DNA of 64,000 bases from a virus (lineage: Duplodnaviria > Caudoviricetes): positions 96,001 to 160,000 of the IMG/VR virus record IMGVR_UViG_3300011226_000001; one strand, given 5' to 3'. The notes beneath the pieces are model-generated. The model saw only the letters and a program-made list of their open reading frames with translations. It did no database searches and was not told the origin of the DNA. The translations under genes were made by a program, and so were the position numbers. Every line of letters begins with the position of its first letter. The first letter of the stretch is position 1. Positions 14,104-45,088 of this stretch are shown piece by piece.

Positions 14104-15126
14104 TTATTCTACGACAGTGCCGCGAACAACACATGGTGGTACCCAGCGTGATTTCAATTCACGCTCACCCTTTAGAGGGCCGTACCAGTAGCTATGGTGG
14201 TGCGCTCGTCGTATGTGAGCACGGCGACCATTTGATTCGTGAGACTTCACTTCGTTTTCGTAGGTACGAATTTCATTCAGTAGCTCTGTACCAACATTCC
14301 ACTCACGAACATCACGAACAGGAATGATTTTGTAGCTATTACCGCTACGTCTAGGTTTGAGTGATTTGATTCCTCCTTTATAAATGTTGTCTACCTGCGA
14401 GGCGACAAATAGCAACACGTTAACTACAGGCTTCATGAGAGCCATAACAGCCTCATTGATCTCACTGCCGTTGTCTGAATTAATGTCAACACCAGTCGCG
14501 CCGTTAGCTCCTACAAGGTGCATGAACCAATCGAAACCATCAGATAGCTCCATATCTTTGGTAATGTCGAATATGATATAGAGCGACATTACTTGATTGC
14601 CTGTGCCGTCATTATACACGCCGAGGCAGGACAAGCTCAGGTGAGTTGCCTCTTGGTAGTTGACGTATGTTGCCCAGAACCCTTCAATATCAATTTCGTA
14701 TTTGTGGCCGGTCGCGACATGTTTGTAGTCAAGTGTGAACACGCAATTGATCCACTGCGACCAATGAGGCAATTGGCGCAGTGTAGAAGTAGGCAGCACT
14801 TTAGGCGCATCGCCCTCAATCAGATGCGGCCACAGTTCTTTCTCAATCACAAACGATGCTTTCGTGAAAGACCAAACGTAATGCGTATAGGTCGCTGACG
14901 AAATAAACATTAACTGACGCGCTATGTCAGGATTGATCTCCGTAGGAATCATATTTGCCCAACGAACAAACTCTTCCATAGGGATTCCGAGTGCAGGGAG
15001 TTTGCCATTGTTCTTTTTCAGGTACGTAGTGAAATGATCAGTTATTTTTGATCGTGCTGCACCGCGAGAGGCAGACTCATGCAGGTAAGCCTCATGTACT
15101 TGGACGAATGTTGCTTTTTCAGACAT
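14104..15126 (-). CDS. AcrVA2/FinQ-like protein
   Basis: LPTSTLRQLPHWSQWI, VNVLLFVAS, WNVG and RAHIRRAHHHSYWYGP..RWVPP blocks match the recalled AcrVA2-family pattern; start MSEKATF. Confidence 0.6.
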   Translation of the reverse strand: MSEKATFVQVHEAYLHESASRGAARSKITDHFTTYLKKNNGKLPALGIPMEEFVRWANMIPTEINPDIARQLMFISSATYTHYVWSFTKASFVIEKELWPHLIEGDAPKVLPTSTLRQLPHWSQWINCVFTLDYKHVATGHKYEIDIEGFWATYVNYQEATHLSLSCLGVYNDGTGNQVMSLYIIFDITKDMELSDGFDWFMHLVGANGATGVDINSDNGSEINEAVMALMKPVVNVLLFVASQVDNIYKGGIKSLKPRRSGNSYKIIPVRDVREWNVGTELLNEIRTYENEVKSHESNGRRAHIRRAHHHSYWYGPLKGERELKSRWVPPCVVRGTVVE

Positions 15127-28354: not shown

Positions 28355-28419
28355 TCTAGTTATTCCTTTATCTGTAAATATGCTTATATGCGTAAATTAC
28401 GAAATGAATAGAGGATGGT

Positions 28420-33945: not shown

Positions 33946-35055
33946 ATGAGCTGGATTGAACGTGGAAGACCACGAAATACTTATGACCGGCACAAGACCT
34001 ACGAAACGGAGCGCGTCCAACGACGTCTTGATTCCGTCCAGAAGGTAGTGCAGTCAAAAGTCGAACAGGCATTGCAGGTTGATGCTATCGATATCGTTAT
34101 CTTCAAGAAAGCAAAGATGGGTCTGACCTGTAGTTGCAACAAGGTTGAGAACGATATCATGGATGACGTACCGGCCGGAATGAAATCTCTCGGTCGTGAG
34201 TCTGACGCAATGAACGGCGGCGTTAAGATCGGCACAGTATCAAAGGGAATGTTTGGCGGTGGGCGTCAATCAGTTTCTCTCGATGATATTGATGACGGCA
34301 TGAACGCAGTCATGGACGCAGCAGACATTATGGGCGTTGACAGCGGTGAAGAGTTCGACGTCAAATGGGATGGTGGTAACGTTGCGAACTGCGGCATCTG
34401 TTTCCGTCAGGGTGTTGTGCCCGGATTTGTAAGCACAGGCTACATCTACAACATCGCAACGCATCACCACGTTAAAGAGCTGACAGGCTATACGCTCGAT
34501 CAGTCCACCAGCCCTGCAACATTCAGACAAGTTCGCAAAGACGGTTACGCTGATTTTGATCAGCTTATCCCAAAATACTTTACGCAGGCGACTTATTCGG
34601 TACGTCTAAACGAAAGTATGTTACCTGCTTTTCCACGTCCTATGCTGCTAGTTAACGGCGTTGAAGTCGAACTGACAGCGAAGAACCTTGAACCGTGGCG
34701 TGGCAAGCACGTAACGATTCGCGTTAAAGGCGTTGAGGCATTCACGCACTGCACGATGATCTTTGACTTAGGTGTGCCTCCAGTTCGAGGTAACATCAGC
34801 GAAGAAGCAAACGTGTTGAACTACGATCAGGAGCTGACTGTTGGCAACATCACGGTCGTGCTGCCAGCGCGTAGCGGTGCGATTGAACCAGAAGACATTC
34901 TCGTTCTGCCTTTCAAAAACTACGTGCTGAAAGTGATGGAAGCACCGAAGAAACGCACAGCGAAAAACGATCAGTGGGAATGGGTGTGCACCACTCGTCC
35001 TGTACAGCGCAAAGAGATTGCGTACAACATTTTCAAAGGCTTCAAAATTCTCTAG
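33946..35055 (+). CDS. Conserved-looking late protein, possibly head completion or neck
   Basis: CTAATTT motif upstream; CSC..CGIC; function inferred only. Confidence 0.6.
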   Translation: MSWIERGRPRNTYDRHKTYETERVQRRLDSVQKVVQSKVEQALQVDAIDIVIFKKAKMGLTCSCNKVENDIMDDVPAGMKSLGRESDAMNGGVKIGTVSKGMFGGGRQSVSLDDIDDGMNAVMDAADIMGVDSGEEFDVKWDGGNVANCGICFRQGVVPGFVSTGYIYNIATHHHVKELTGYTLDQSTSPATFRQVRKDGYADFDQLIPKYFTQATYSVRLNESMLPAFPRPMLLVNGVEVELTAKNLEPWRGKHVTIRVKGVEAFTHCTMIFDLGVPPVRGNISEEANVLNYDQELTVGNITVVLPARSGAIEPEDILVLPFKNYVLKVMEAPKKRTAKNDQWEWVCTTRPVQRKEIAYNIFKGFKIL

Positions 35056-40476: not shown

Positions 40477-40821
40477 ATGGACGACGAGGACTTCGATTTT
40501 GAGTTCGGAGCAGACGATGACAGCGGTTACTACATCGACCAGCCCCTGCACATGGTGATGGACGGCGATGATGCAATCGTTGGACACCTCGTCGATTCCG
40601 GTGACAATGTATTAATGTACGGCGCCTACTTTGTTGTTGACGATGAAGAAGACCCAGACGCTGCTACGCTTATCGAGGTTCCAATCTTCAAAGTAGATCC
40701 TCTCGCCGATATCATCGTTGTAATGAACGCGGACGAAATGCGAATGCGCTATACCAGCGAGTTGCTCACTCTCGCCTTCATCAACGATATTCCTCTGGTA
40801 GTTAAAAGCACGAGGCATTAA
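40477..40821 (+). CDS. Highly acidic protein
   Basis: 114 aa, D-rich. Confidence 0.68.
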   Translation: MDDEDFDFEFGADDDSGYYIDQPLHMVMDGDDAIVGHLVDSGDNVLMYGAYFVVDDEEDPDAATLIEVPIFKVDPLADIIVVMNADEMRMRYTSELLTLAFINDIPLVVKSTRH

Positions 40822-41408
40822 TGATCAAACATATTTTCTTCGACATGGACGACACGGCATTTGATACGCACAACTTCATGTTGTGTTATCTGATGAACTG
40901 GGGAATCTACCCTGGGACAGATACTTACATCACTCCTGAAAACGGCCACCAGCCTTTTGTCGATATGCTGGAAGATGGTCGCTTCATGTTAGAAGCCAAC
41001 ATGCGTGACTACTTCATCCAGACTGTGGCGTTCCTGGTGCGCGAAGGATTCAGCGTCGGCATTTGTACGCATCGTGGCTACCATGCTAAGGGTGAACGCA
41101 ACACACGTAAGGCTCTGGAGAAACACCTGTCGTTGTTCGATCACATCGACGTGCTGGACAGTCGCCAACATCCTGACAAGATTGCTTACCTCAATGAGAA
41201 GTACGGGGAAGGTACTTGGATTCTTGTTGACGACAATCCTGTTACTGCTGTGCGTGACAAGTTCACTCGCGTTGGTGATCAACTGGTACTGCCGCGTAAC
41301 GTGTTGCTGTTTACCAAAGGATGGAACCTGCACATCGATCATCCTCATCGAATTGAATCATTCGACAGACAACATTTCTTGTCAAAGCTGCGTCCAATGC
41401 TGAACTAA
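40821..41408 (+). CDS. HAD-family 5'(3')-deoxyribonucleotidase-like phosphatase
   Basis: IFFDMDDT, ICTHRG, DK and ILVDDNP motifs. Confidence 0.8.
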   Translation: MIKHIFFDMDDTAFDTHNFMLCYLMNWGIYPGTDTYITPENGHQPFVDMLEDGRFMLEANMRDYFIQTVAFLVREGFSVGICTHRGYHAKGERNTRKALEKHLSLFDHIDVLDSRQHPDKIAYLNEKYGEGTWILVDDNPVTAVRDKFTRVGDQLVLPRNVLLFTKGWNLHIDHPHRIESFDRQHFLSKLRPMLN

Positions 41409-41449
41409 GAATTGTCTGAATATTTCGGAATGTTTCTAATTTATAACAG

Positions 41450-41785
41450 TACAAAACAGTGCATACGGAGTTTGCGCTGACTGTTTAGTTCGGCCTGTTT
41501 CTTTTGCCGAATTTGGGGATAGGCCGAACTCTTTTTTGTACAGACTCGGCCCTGAGTCACCCTAGGCCAACTAGCGTAACACCGCGTTATCGCTAATGGC
41601 CGAAAGCGGCTGCTCTAGGCTGCGAACTCCGCTACCTGCCGAAACGTTCGCTGCCGCAAAGAGCGTAAGACCGCAAGCGCTACCGTGTCGGTGCAATTGA
41701 AAGACACGGGGAGAAAGCCCTGGCTAGACCGTCATCTGGCGAGGGTGGACTCCAATATGTTTTCTCTGAGAGCCTATTGGAGTTT
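41450..41785 (+). ncRNA. Candidate structured non-coding RNA or RNAs
   Basis: ORF-free gap of about 470 nt; CTAATTT upstream; multiple stems and a long-range helix 41554-41563/41742-41752. Confidence 0.55.
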
Positions 41786-41876
41786 AAGACTTTTCTGACT
41801 TTATTCTTGTGTGACTACTCGCAGTAAACTGTAAACATAATTCAGAAGAACGAGAAATTTTAGCACAGGAGAATAG

Positions 41877-42074
41877 ATGCTTCGTAAACCAAGCTACCGT
41901 GTTGTCGCCGACTTGATTCAGGCTGACGGTACATTCACCACTCACACCGTAGAGAGTGGCATAAAAGATTATGACGTAGTGGAACAGAAACTTGAGTCAA
42001 TCAAGAACAACCCACCGTCCAACTTTAAGCACTTCTTCCGTGTCGTACCACGATGGGAAATGTGCTTTGCCTAA
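41877..42074 (+). CDS. Small hypothetical protein
   Basis: 65 aa, AGGAG SD, CTGTAAACA upstream. Confidence 0.65.
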   Translation: MLRKPSYRVVADLIQADGTFTTHTVESGIKDYDVVEQKLESIKNNPPSNFKHFFRVVPRWEMCFA

Positions 42075-42219
42075 TCGACAGCGCCCACTGCCGATGCGTT
42101 ACCATCCAAAACTTATTGTAACACCATAAGGACCCTCCATTTTTGGATGTGGTCCTTTCTTTTTGTCTGAATACTGTAAATACCTGATGTAACGCATCAA
42201 ACTATAGGGCGAAAGTAAA

Positions 42220-43503
42220 ATGGCGAAAGAAGAAAAGAAAAAGAAGAAAGCGCGTTCCTTCGGTGACGATAAGCCATCGAAAAAGAAAAGCGGATCTTCT
42301 GAGTCAGTTGAGTTGACTACGGTTAACTTTGCTGATCAGTTCCGACCTAAACGTATCGAAGACTACGTTGGTCAAGACCACATCGTTAAGATCATGAAGG
42401 GTTGGCAGAAGTCGAAAACGATTCCGTCAACGATGATCATTACCGGCCACCTCGGTTCTGGTAAGACAACGTTCGCACGTCTGGTGGCGAAGTACATCAA
42501 CTGCGATTCGTTCTCTGCGTGTGGCAAGTGTCGTTCATGTCAGCTTATGGAAACTGGCGGCCACATGGACGTACAAGAATTTGATATGGGTGGCGATGCA
42601 GGTAAAGTAGACGGCTCACAGAAGATTGTTGACTCTGCACCGTTAAGCCCGATGTTCAAACGTCGCGTGTTCATCTTCGATGAATCGCACCTCATGTCCA
42701 GTGCTGCTGAATCCAAGCTGCTCAAGATTACCGAACAGCCACCAGCGCACGTTGTCTTCATCTTCGTAACAACGAACCCAGAGAAGATGAAAGGCACGAT
42801 GATCAGTCGTATGACGCAACTGCCTATCAGACCTATTCCAACTGACGTGATTCATAAGCGTCTGGTTGAGATTGGCGAGAAGCTGGACATCATGCCGAAG
42901 AAAGACAAAGCGCGTGAGAAAGCAGAAGCGGCACTGTATCAGGTTGCAGAATACGCTGGTGGTCAGATGCGTGGTGCAATCACCATGCTGCAAAACATTT
43001 ACTCGTCTGTTAAAGGCGGCGAAGACTTTGATAAGAACCTCGTTGCAGAACTCGCTGCTGCTGATCCAGAAATCGACATGGAAGCGAAAGCAGTTCAGAT
43101 GATTGGTGCTTATCTCAGTATGGACCTGATTGGTGTTATTCAGTTCCTGCGTGAAGCGAACAACCCTCGTGCAATCGTAGCGAAAGCGCGTTGGATCATT
43201 CACGGTGTGCTGGGTCATTACGCCGAAACGAATAAGTGGCAGTCAGCTGGCCTCAAGATGTTTATGAACATGATCAAGAAAGACAAAATCAAAGTCAATC
43301 TGGTCAGTCTGGTGTATCTGCAATCCGCATTAGCAGACGCCGAAGTAGCATTCAACTCTACATCGGTACCTGCGGATATCATGCTGGAAACAGGCATCAC
43401 CAGAACAATGTCTGATATCTACAGTGGCAAGCTGGTGATTGATTTGGGTAATGACGACGAAGACGACGAACCCAAAGAGAAGAAAAAGAAAAAGAAGAAG
43501 TAA
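42220..43503 (+). CDS. dnaX: Clamp loader, DNA polymerase III gamma/tau-like AAA+ ATPase
   Basis: FRPKRIEDYVGQ, GHLGSGKTT, NC..CGKCRSC, IFDESH, ISR and GQMR. Confidence 0.88.
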   Translation: MAKEEKKKKKARSFGDDKPSKKKSGSSESVELTTVNFADQFRPKRIEDYVGQDHIVKIMKGWQKSKTIPSTMIITGHLGSGKTTFARLVAKYINCDSFSACGKCRSCQLMETGGHMDVQEFDMGGDAGKVDGSQKIVDSAPLSPMFKRRVFIFDESHLMSSAAESKLLKITEQPPAHVVFIFVTTNPEKMKGTMISRMTQLPIRPIPTDVIHKRLVEIGEKLDIMPKKDKAREKAEAALYQVAEYAGGQMRGAITMLQNIYSSVKGGEDFDKNLVAELAAADPEIDMEAKAVQMIGAYLSMDLIGVIQFLREANNPRAIVAKARWIIHGVLGHYAETNKWQSAGLKMFMNMIKKDKIKVNLVSLVYLQSALADAEVAFNSTSVPADIMLETGITRTMSDIYSGKLVIDLGNDDEDDEPKEKKKKKKK

Positions 43504-45007: not shown

Positions 45008-45088
45008 CGGTGGCCCTTCTTTTTGTCTGATGCCTTAAAAACTGTAAATAGCGAGTATCATTTATATACTATACATAGGTCCCTGACT

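Follow-up and report, generated by a model that had tools for sequence, protein, structure and literature searches.

A predicted family of pseudoknotted noncoding RNA located upstream of the clamp-loader module in jumbo phages of Enterobacterales

The GOLLD and ROOL RNAs, large structured RNAs of phages and prophages, were found by comparative analysis, and a biochemical role has not been established for either of them. Two other structured RNAs, the put RNA of phage HK022 and the Bacillus EAR element, which contains a pseudoknot, lie a short distance behind a promoter, with terminators further on, and are oriented like the genes that they serve. The pRNA of the phi29-type phages, small podoviruses with protein-primed DNA, is a phage-encoded noncoding RNA (ncRNA) of 120 to 170 nucleotides (nt) that retains its structure while its sequence drifts, acts in trans within a protein machine, and is defined by intermolecular loop-loop pairing. 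Jumbo phages encode hundreds of genes whose functions are little known, yet, to our knowledge, almost no ncRNAs have been described in them apart from tRNAs. The present analysis deals with a noncoding interval in a 64-kb stretch of jumbo phage DNA (the window; bases 96001 to 160000 of the 268,224-bp IMG/VR record IMGVR_UViG_3300011226_000001, which has terminal repeats). The closest isolate is Erwinia phage pEa_SNUABM_17, a member of the genus Alexandravirus, with 98% identity across the region in question. This region, at ∼137.6 kb of the record, is predicted to contain a plus-strand ncRNA gene of ∼340 nt (roughly positions 41450 to 41790 of the window) that represents an uncatalogued family.

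An initial annotation had proposed a novel structured phage ncRNA in what it took to be the largest gap between open reading frames (ORFs) in the window. The gap is indeed the largest one: with a cutoff of at least 60 amino acids (aa), the longest stretch devoid of ORFs covers positions 41409 to 41876 (468 nt), and every sequence element named in that annotation, such as CTAATTT at 41436-42 and the GACTC/GAGTC pair at 41543-47/41554-58, was found in its place. The proposal itself is borne out by the noncoding character of the interval, its strand specificity, the compensatory changes seen across seven isolate lineages, and the absence of a match in Rfam 15. The plus strand of positions 41540 to 41790 folds with a free energy of -102.7 kcal/mol, clearly better than its dinucleotide-shuffled versions (-80.1 ± 4.5 kcal/mol; z = -5.0, with 0 of 200 shuffles being as good); for the minus strand of the same region, z is -1.9.

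Selection on this fold is most evident from the comparison of homologues (helix names are those in Table 1). In the alignment of 27 core sequences, standard base pairs fill 91.7% of the cells, a percentage inflated by the fitting of the counting alignments to the structure of the model, compared to 30 to 48% when the 3' partners are slid by 1 to 3 columns. Changes on both sides are found in 32 of the 53 core pairs, and in 500 column shuffles, the observed values were not attained on any measure. The same compensatory changes are visible in plain MAFFT alignments, and a 23-sequence version of the alignment that includes the pseudoknot stem S1 agrees with the 27-sequence result. By helix, both sides have changed in 12 of the 14 pairs of P3 and in 8 of the 11 pairs of P5. 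P6 has 97% of its cells paired, with seven pairs that never vary and six compensatory ones in the upper and lowest parts, and many of its U.G pairs are compatible with the plus strand only. Covariation extends to the 5' part, where the upper stem of hp0 is 100% paired, with both sides changed in 3 of 5 pairs, and the T1 stem (pair I3) is 100% complementary, with compensatory changes in 4 of 10 pairs. The P2 stem covaries as well (UAGCG/CGCUA, CAGUG/CACUG, and CAGCG/CGCUG), and P1 is invariant. Wobble pairs of the G.U type number 191 (158+33), as against 23 (21+2) of the A.C type, and the paired molecule is therefore an RNA read from the plus strand.

The pseudoknot follows the H-type strand order (S1-5', S2-5', S1-3', S2-3') with short loops, and both of its stems covary, with two compensatory pairs in S1 and five in S2. 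For 14 of the 15 lineage representatives, automatic enumeration arrived at this topology, with both stems differing in sequence: GGGCGCG/CGCGCCU and UCCCUCU/AGGGGGA in Yoloswag, for example, and AAGUGCC/GGCACUU and UCACGC/GCGUGG in the L085 locus. The SNU7 pseudoknot, which has a longer loop 1, was recognized by eye only. Because the pseudoknot scores (7.5 to 13.0) are not clearly apart from those of shuffled controls (mean, 6.6; standard deviation, 3.7; maximum, 12.5), the case for this structure rests on covariation.

Two readings that dispense with an RNA altogether, a DNA element (a protein-binding palindrome or a packaging site) and a missed small protein gene, can be considered close to refuted. 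The former draws on an invariant, operator-like inverted repeat, ACTCCAAT/ATTGGAGT. However, this palindrome occurs once in the genome, the pseudoknot stems covary, and the excess of G.U over A.C pairs indicates that pairing has been selected on one strand only. A protein gene would agree with the short "hypothetical protein" coding sequences that three database records place across the RNA homologue, namely those in Yoloswag (gp204; L022:2303-2467), pEa_SNUABM_5 (pEaSNUABM5_00214; L025:1683-1808, minus strand), and Yersinia phage fHe-Yen9-02 (fHeYen902_106c; L087:1782-1988). These ORFs are probably spurious, because they differ in strand and position and show no conservation, and their annotation calls for correction. 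No ORF is common to the homologues, whose longest ORFs agree neither in strand nor in place or length, and the indels among them are not multiples of three. The locus thus combines compensatory pairing above controls, strand specificity, and the lack of a conserved reading frame, the features generally expected of structured ncRNAs.

Table 1. Predicted elements of the RNA and the adjacent signals, in window coordinates
Feature	Position	Strand	Description
AT-rich motif	41436-41447	+	CTAATTTATAAC (CTAATTW plus TATAAC-like hexamer); conserved; possible promoter -10 region (putative role)
5' module	41449-41541	+	Contains hp0 and T1; can be closed by pairing of GUACAAAA (41449-56) with UUUUGUAC (41534-41)
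Hairpin hp0	41454-41486	+	Lower stem AAAC/GUUU, upper stem AGUGC/GCGCU; 11-nt loop AUACGGAGUUU with conserved GGAGU
Hairpin T1	41487-41537	+	10-bp GC-rich stem AGTTCGGCCT/AGGCCGAACT (41487-96/41521-30), 24-nt loop, then C and U6
Hairpin P1	41543-41558	+	GACUC/GAGUC, arms 41543-47/41554-58; stem identical in 18 distinct sequences, loop variable in both length and sequence
Hairpin P2	41565-41601	+	GGCC-TAGCG-TAAC; invariant apical GUAACACCGCGU
Long stem P3	41606-41674	+	Outer GCGG/CCGC (41606-09/41671-74), middle GCUCU/AGAGC, inner GGC-GCGAAC/GUUCGC-GCC; apical CGCUACCUG
H-type pseudoknot	41677-41709	+	S1, GCGCU (41677-81) with GGUGC (41690-94); S2, CCGUGUC (41683-89) with GACACGG (41703-09)
Pseudoknot loop 3	41695-41702	+	A/U-rich
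Strand a	41710-41716	+	GGAG (41710-13) of the invariant G-run; can pair with CUCC (41750-53)
Hairpin P5	41717-41746	+	Outer GCCCU/AGGGU, inner GCUAGA/UCUGGC; loop with GACCGUCAUC
Hairpin P6	41747-41785	+	CTCCAATA/TATTGGAG (41750-82); upper stem GUUUUC/GAGAGC
Strand b (5' arm of P6)	41749-55	+	Invariant ACUCCAA
Strand c (3' arm of P6)	41777-83	+	Invariant UUGGAGU
Promoter-type motif	41829-41837	+	CTGTAAACA; belongs to the 65-aa ORF (41877-42074); marks the end of the RNA unit

The universal core of the RNA spans 180 nt (41606-41785) and consists of P3, the pseudoknot, the G-run, P5, and P6. The 5' part (hp0, T1, P1, and P2) is lineage specific: a single long hairpin takes its place in the Salmondvirus (JA) type, from which T1 is absent, and in RNAs of the Yoloswag type, the 5' domain is a different, larger one. 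The arms that can close the 5' module (inverted repeat I2; 11 nt, 91% complementary) are invariant among 21 sequences, and their pairing is also predicted by RNAalifold. The GGAGU of the hp0 loop is kept in Yoloswag, SNU5, and fHe-Yen9-02 as well; a pairing of this loop with positions 41622-31 (pair I6) was considered and rejected, since the partner is not conserved. P3 carries a six-base internal loop, UAAGAC (41666-71), which is invariant in 27 sequences and varies in fHe-Yen9-02 only. The G-run reads GGGGAG at 41708-13, with GGG(A/G)G being invariant, and the P5 loop is invariant in three genera and different in others. The GAAA, GCAA, and GTAA words pointed out in the initial annotation are present, located in junctions and internal loops and not in tetraloops.

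Some of the unpaired blocks show variations or similarities of their own. GUAACACCGC and GUAAGACCGC resemble each other as parts of an 18-nt direct repeat, D2 (83% identical; 41568-41585 and 41657-41674), in which the apical GCGUAACACCGC of P2 is similar to the internal-loop GCGUAAGACCGC of P3. These near-copies could represent two sites for a single binding partner or a duplication of a module. The Y3-like phage pEp_SNUABM_52 (L011:~590-610) has a 10-nt tandem duplication (GTAACACCGC) in the otherwise invariant P2 loop, so that this loop evidently tolerates a repeat of its own motif. The T-run that follows T1 (41532-41537) varies from 6 to 12 residues among phages that are otherwise >92% identical (11 in AD1, 12 in SNU1 and SNU39, and 9 in SNU2), which may be due to homopolymer slippage or reflect tuning of termination.

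In the initial annotation, these hairpins had been arranged in a multibranch loop with a closing helix formed by GAGTCACCCT (41554-63) and AGGGTGGACTC (41742-52), or, as RNA, GAGUCACCCU and AGGGUGGACUC. The complementarity is real in this phage but does not represent a conserved architecture. The 5' strand of this helix is composed of the 3' arm of P1 and ACCCU (41559-63), and the latter half (ACCCT in DNA) is deleted in six relatives (phB78, SNU30, one uncultured relative, SNU22/28, and Y3). The AGGGU of the opposite strand pairs locally in P5. With the deletions, the minimum-energy fold, and covariation all favouring local partners, the closing helix was rejected as part of the native fold. 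Because these local partners are conserved, that fold is better described as a row of hairpins with a pseudoknot than as a closed multibranch loop.

The suggestion of two conformers fared better, in that an alternative pairing is conserved, but the competitor of the 3' hairpin turned out to be the GGAG that follows the pseudoknot and not the 5' GAGTCACCCT strand. The GGAG of strand a and the GGAGU of strand c are both complementary to the CUCC of strand b, and the a:b pairing (41710-13 with 41750-53) competes with P6 (b:c). For RNA folded without strand c (ending before 41775), a:b was the minimum-energy structure in all five lineages tried, and in the full-length fold, b:c was preferred. In the folding model, the favoured structure before the transcription of strand c is predicted to be a:b, an extension of P5. 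Here, a:b adds 4 bp to P5 across a 3x3 internal loop; in JA13, L053, L085, and fHe-Yen9-02, it forms a continuous helix of 8 to 11 bp. The three strands change together in those lineages (a / b / c: GGAGUUUA / UAAACUCC / GGAGUUUA; GGGGUUUG / CAAACUCC / GGAGUUUG; GGAGUAUGCC / GGCAUACUCC / GGAGUAUGCC), with strands a and c following strand b as UUUA/UAAA in JA13, UUUG/CAAA in L085, and UAUGCC/GGCAUA in fHe-Yen9-02. This three-way constraint accounts for the sequence invariance of both arms of P6. From the modelled structures, we infer a functional role for the a:b as well as the b:c state.

Homologues of the RNA were found in seven isolate lineages: Alexandravirus, Sasquatchvirus, Snuvirus, Yoloswagvirus, Rivsvirus, Salmondvirus, and Yersinia phage fHe-Yen9-02. 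In blastn searches, the whole gap was found conserved, and unannotated, in 44 phage records with 72 to 98% identity (Alexandravirus, Sasquatchvirus [Y3], and Snuvirus). Diverged copies that had been missed by blastn were located upstream of the clamp-loader gene in Yoloswag, pEa_SNUABM_5 (Rivsvirus), the Dickeya phages JA11, JA13, JA29, and JA33 (Salmondvirus), and fHe-Yen9-02. A degenerate pattern made from the invariant blocks identified uncultured relatives in metagenome and IMG/VR contigs, which were confirmed by the core covariance model R1 at 47 to 199 bits; the single new locus from the first pattern search of IMG/VR fell within a coding region and was a false positive. The copy number is exactly one in every positive genome. 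PaBG, the relative that comes next in clamp-loader identity (33%), has no copy in its whole genome and no gap where synteny would place it, and all 11 pattern matches among the 185,579 bacterial and archaeal genomes scanned fail the covariance model. The family is restricted to a single clade of jumbo phages whose hosts are Erwinia, Dickeya, and Yersinia.

Searches with the covariance models of Rfam 15, which include RNase P, tmRNA, 6S, SRP, riboswitches, self-cleaving ribozymes, group I and II introns, GOLLD, ROOL, and CsrB/RsmB, gave no matches in the whole window at gathering scores. At E values up to 10, positions 41350 to 41900 produced only two chance-level matches (14 and 10 bits), and no match recurred among five homologous loci. 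ARAGORN detected no tRNA or tmRNA genes in the window, in agreement with the initial annotation, which had recognized no signatures of tRNA, tmRNA, or RNase P. The literature search retrieved no description of this RNA and no transcriptome paper on these phages. The RNA is new as a family, and novelty is claimed here at the level of the family.

Several candidate functions could be discarded. A sponge for CsrA/RsmA, one of the roles suggested at the outset, was rejected, as the only conserved GGA triplets available are those in the hp0 loop and in a single-stranded position after the pseudoknot; the other two lie inside the P6 stem, and Rfam gave no CsrB/Rsm match. The other roles suggested there, a ribozyme and a packaging RNA, are conjectures that none of the present results favour. 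Antisense action through the P5 loop was rejected as well: its complement, ATGACGGTS, is found at 8 further sites in the genome, none of them at a start codon with a Shine-Dalgarno sequence. The P6 palindrome and the other blocks occur in the genome once or at chance level. A possible likeness to the ToxI antitoxin repeat (GCUACC...GUGCA...GAAA around the pseudoknot) was dropped, being restricted to the Alexandravirus type and lost in other lineages.

A CTAATT(T/A) sequence is located 10 to 20 nt before the first helix of the RNA in all lineages except for the Yersinia phage, which has TAATATTATAG instead, and this CTAATTW/TATAAC-like block is the only candidate for a promoter of the RNA. The initial annotation had described the RNA as late expressed, which is left without support. 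CTGTAAAYA, a motif that is strongly enriched in the window (14 sites versus 1.2 expected) and in the genome (37 sites versus ∼2) and mostly found 35 to 60 nt before start codons (for example, at 41829-41837, 42174-42182, 45042-45050, and 28372-28380), lies downstream of the RNA (41829) and was not found upstream of it. This motif resembles the T4 late promoter, TATAAATA. Another sequence, TTGTCTGA(A/T), recurs at positions that directly follow a terminator hairpin or a stop codon and shortly precede a promoter-type motif (41412-41421, 42163-42172, 14471-14480, 34521-34530 on the minus strand, and about 45022); with one mismatch allowed, it has 20 sites compared to 12 expected.

T1, in which a GC-rich hairpin is followed by a U-run, resembles in its sequence an intrinsic terminator or attenuator; owing to its loop of >8 nt, it is missed by a simple terminator scan. 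Such a signal inside the predicted gene brings up the possibility of two small-RNA genes, an ∼88-nt small RNA (sRNA) made of hp0 and T1 (41450-41537) that would base-pair via its GGAGUUU loop and an independent larger RNA originating from another start or from processing. A 10-bp GC-rich stem with a tail of 6 to 12 U residues is the usual 3' end of Hfq-type sRNAs, hp0 and T1 covary, and the JA type has the core without either of them, so that the parts are separable. However, T1 and P1 are 5 nt apart, with no promoter-like sequence between them, hp0 and T1 can form a single domain, closed by the pairing of GUACAAAA with UUUUGUAC, where the U-run may be paired and not a free tail, and no target for the hp0 loop was found. 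A split at T1, which would be compatible with a trans-acting RNA as well as with a cis-acting leader, appears doubtful, if worth keeping in view.

Immediately upstream of the RNA is a 195-aa ORF (40821-41408) in which DMDDT and VDDN represent HAD-phosphatase motifs. Its match to the "polynucleotide kinase" family of PHROGs is weak (E = 1e-13), and sequence searches of Pfam and PDB gave no matches; a tie to RNA-end chemistry is conceivable. On the downstream side, the 65-aa ORF (41877-42074) is followed by a DnaX-like clamp-loader gene (42220-43503). The homologues occupy the same place, after the HAD-phosphatase gene and before the clamp-loader module, with the HAD-like gene being the constant upstream neighbour and the downstream gene varying by lineage. 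In this phage and fHe-Yen9-02, the latter is the 65-aa ORF, which has a CTGTAAA-type motif of its own in front of it; a membrane-protein ORF takes this place in Yoloswag and SNU5; in JA13, a strong intrinsic terminator comes after the RNA and is followed by the clamp-loader promoter. A constant upstream neighbour combined with differing downstream ones supports a stand-alone gene. The homologue of the 65-aa ORF in fHe-Yen9-02 is at L087:2054-2251; Yoloswag has an unannotated one (L022:3103-3303) with a CTGTAAATA motif before it, and in the JA type, this ORF does not adjoin the RNA.

The same neighbourhood has to be weighed with regard to a cis-acting leader, that is, an attenuator, a riboswitch-like sensor, or an antitermination element of the HK022 put/EAR type that would set the amount of upstream transcription passing on into the replication module, from the 65-aa ORF and the clamp loader onward, with the a/b/c exchange as its expression platform. 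In every lineage, the RNA directly precedes the clamp-loader module and shares its orientation, and terminator-like hairpins flank the element (T1 here and the strong terminator after the RNA in JA13). An exchange among three strands is a classic attenuator design, aptamers typically combine stems that covary with unpaired nucleotides that are highly conserved, and Yoloswag has no promoter motif between the RNA and the next ORF. However, the gene to be controlled differs by lineage and, here and in fHe-Yen9-02, has its own CTGTAAA-type promoter after the RNA. The competing a:b and b:c pairings are present and covary, but no U-run follows P6 in the JA or Yersinia types, so that P6 is not a conserved terminator, and there is no start codon after the GGAG of strand c. 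Furthermore, the core is preceded by T1 and cannot help the RNA polymerase pass it, and no riboswitch, EAR, or other leader family from Rfam matches the locus. On this evidence, a cis-acting leader seems unlikely.

The position at the head of the replication module and the invariant G-run, which might aid a persistent hybrid, could also be taken to indicate an origin transcript or a primer, similar to ColE1 RNA II or the T4 origin transcripts. The corresponding gap before a related clamp-loader gene in Alcaligenes phage Afa-NA1 has iteron-like repeats; yet Afa-NA1 has little other shared synteny, and the gap studied here contains no iterons or AT-rich unwinding region. The cumulative GC-skew minimum (∼102 to 124 kb) and the coding-strand switch (∼125 to 130 kb) are 8 to 35 kb away from the RNA (137.6 kb), and a primer would not need an intricate pseudoknotted fold of the kind that has been under selection. 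A replication-linked RNA is thus rated as very improbable. The Afa-NA1 gap itself (L088:1940-2423; 480 nt, in a record of only 78 kb) has about eight of these repeats (AACTGATACATGAG / AACTTAAATGAG) and no RNA; it precedes a clamp-loader gene 52% identical to that of JA13 and is a possible replication origin.

A stand-alone, stable RNA that acts in trans is favoured because a pseudoknot together with helices that covary and unpaired blocks under strict conservation is the pattern seen in protein- or ligand-binding RNAs and ribozymes; by this analogy, it appears unlike the pattern of simple antisense RNAs. The tertiary fold and the conserved unpaired blocks (UAAGAC, GUAACACCGC, GACCGUCAUC, and the GGAGU loops) would form a scaffold or a decoy for a phage or host protein, and the a:b-to-b:c exchange would serve cotranscriptional folding or act as an activity switch. 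This trans-acting role, with its leaning towards a switch, is put forward tentatively and with less than even confidence. Taken as a single claim, the RNA gene, the new family, and the fold, together with the leaning towards action in trans, can be regarded as somewhat probable.

Several observations weigh against this interpretation, in addition to the inflated paired percentage mentioned above. A scan of the plus strand found no canonical sigma-70 promoter, and CTAATTT, conserved locally, is not enriched genome-wide. T1 sits between the putative promoter and the core, which would require read-through or another start for the core to be transcribed. The transcript, its ends, and its timing are predictions from sequence alone, and any partner protein, target, or ligand is hypothetical. 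The RNA is codirectional with the replication genes and always found just upstream of them, an arrangement that fits a cis element too. Finally, in the Alexandravirus type, the a:b extension amounts to just 4 bp beyond the 3x3 internal loop.

A more far-reaching possibility is that the RNA belongs to a new class of sensors or catalysts, in which the domain formed by P3 and the pseudoknot would bind a metabolite, a nucleotide second messenger, or a protein made during infection, with the strand exchange converting this binding into an output. As this output, the RNA could release the GGAGU strand, process itself, or control transcripts of the replication genes. This is a speculative reading and a distinctly unlikely one; if true, jumbo phages would have their first specific regulator of a riboswitch-like or ribozyme-like kind. 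An equally new alternative could be an RNA decoy that counters a defence nuclease of the host.

The constraint on this RNA is strong, with the two stems of the pseudoknot, four helices besides them, and several unpaired blocks kept across the seven isolate lineages. The phages that carry it include isolated, culturable ones from plant-associated and enteric hosts, which makes it a tractable entry point. A defined function, if found, be it regulation of replication genes, partnership in a ribonucleoprotein, or a role as an antidefence decoy, would constitute a new RNA class in phage biology.

Among the described systems, the phi29 pRNA shows no homology to this RNA, which is located in a replication module, with nothing that would tie it to the terminase or portal genes. 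The HK022 put and Bacillus EAR elements share no Rfam similarity with it and are smaller, the present RNA being two to four times larger; moreover, T1 precedes the conserved core, whereas antitermination by the core would call for the reverse order. Closer parallels are offered by attenuators and riboswitch platforms with their 1:2 versus 2:3 exchange: here, too, strand b, through its CUCC, pairs either with the upstream strand a or with the downstream strand c, the upstream pairing is predicted to form first during transcription, and a conserved structured domain is located just 5' of strand a. In contrast to attenuators, the b:c hairpin has no conserved U-run, and the gene that comes next is not a conserved one and often carries its own promoter; in contrast to riboswitches, no ligand or known aptamer class is recognizable, and the RNA matched none of the riboswitch families tested. 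GOLLD (RF01998) and ROOL (RF03087) have no sequence or structure match to this RNA and are longer (roughly 500 to 800 nt, compared to its 180-nt core and ∼340 nt in total), and the present family differs from them in its restriction to one clade of Enterobacterales jumbo phages and in its three-strand exchange at the 3' end. Like GOLLD and ROOL, it can be described as a phage-borne, stand-alone, intricate pseudoknotted RNA with conserved unpaired blocks.

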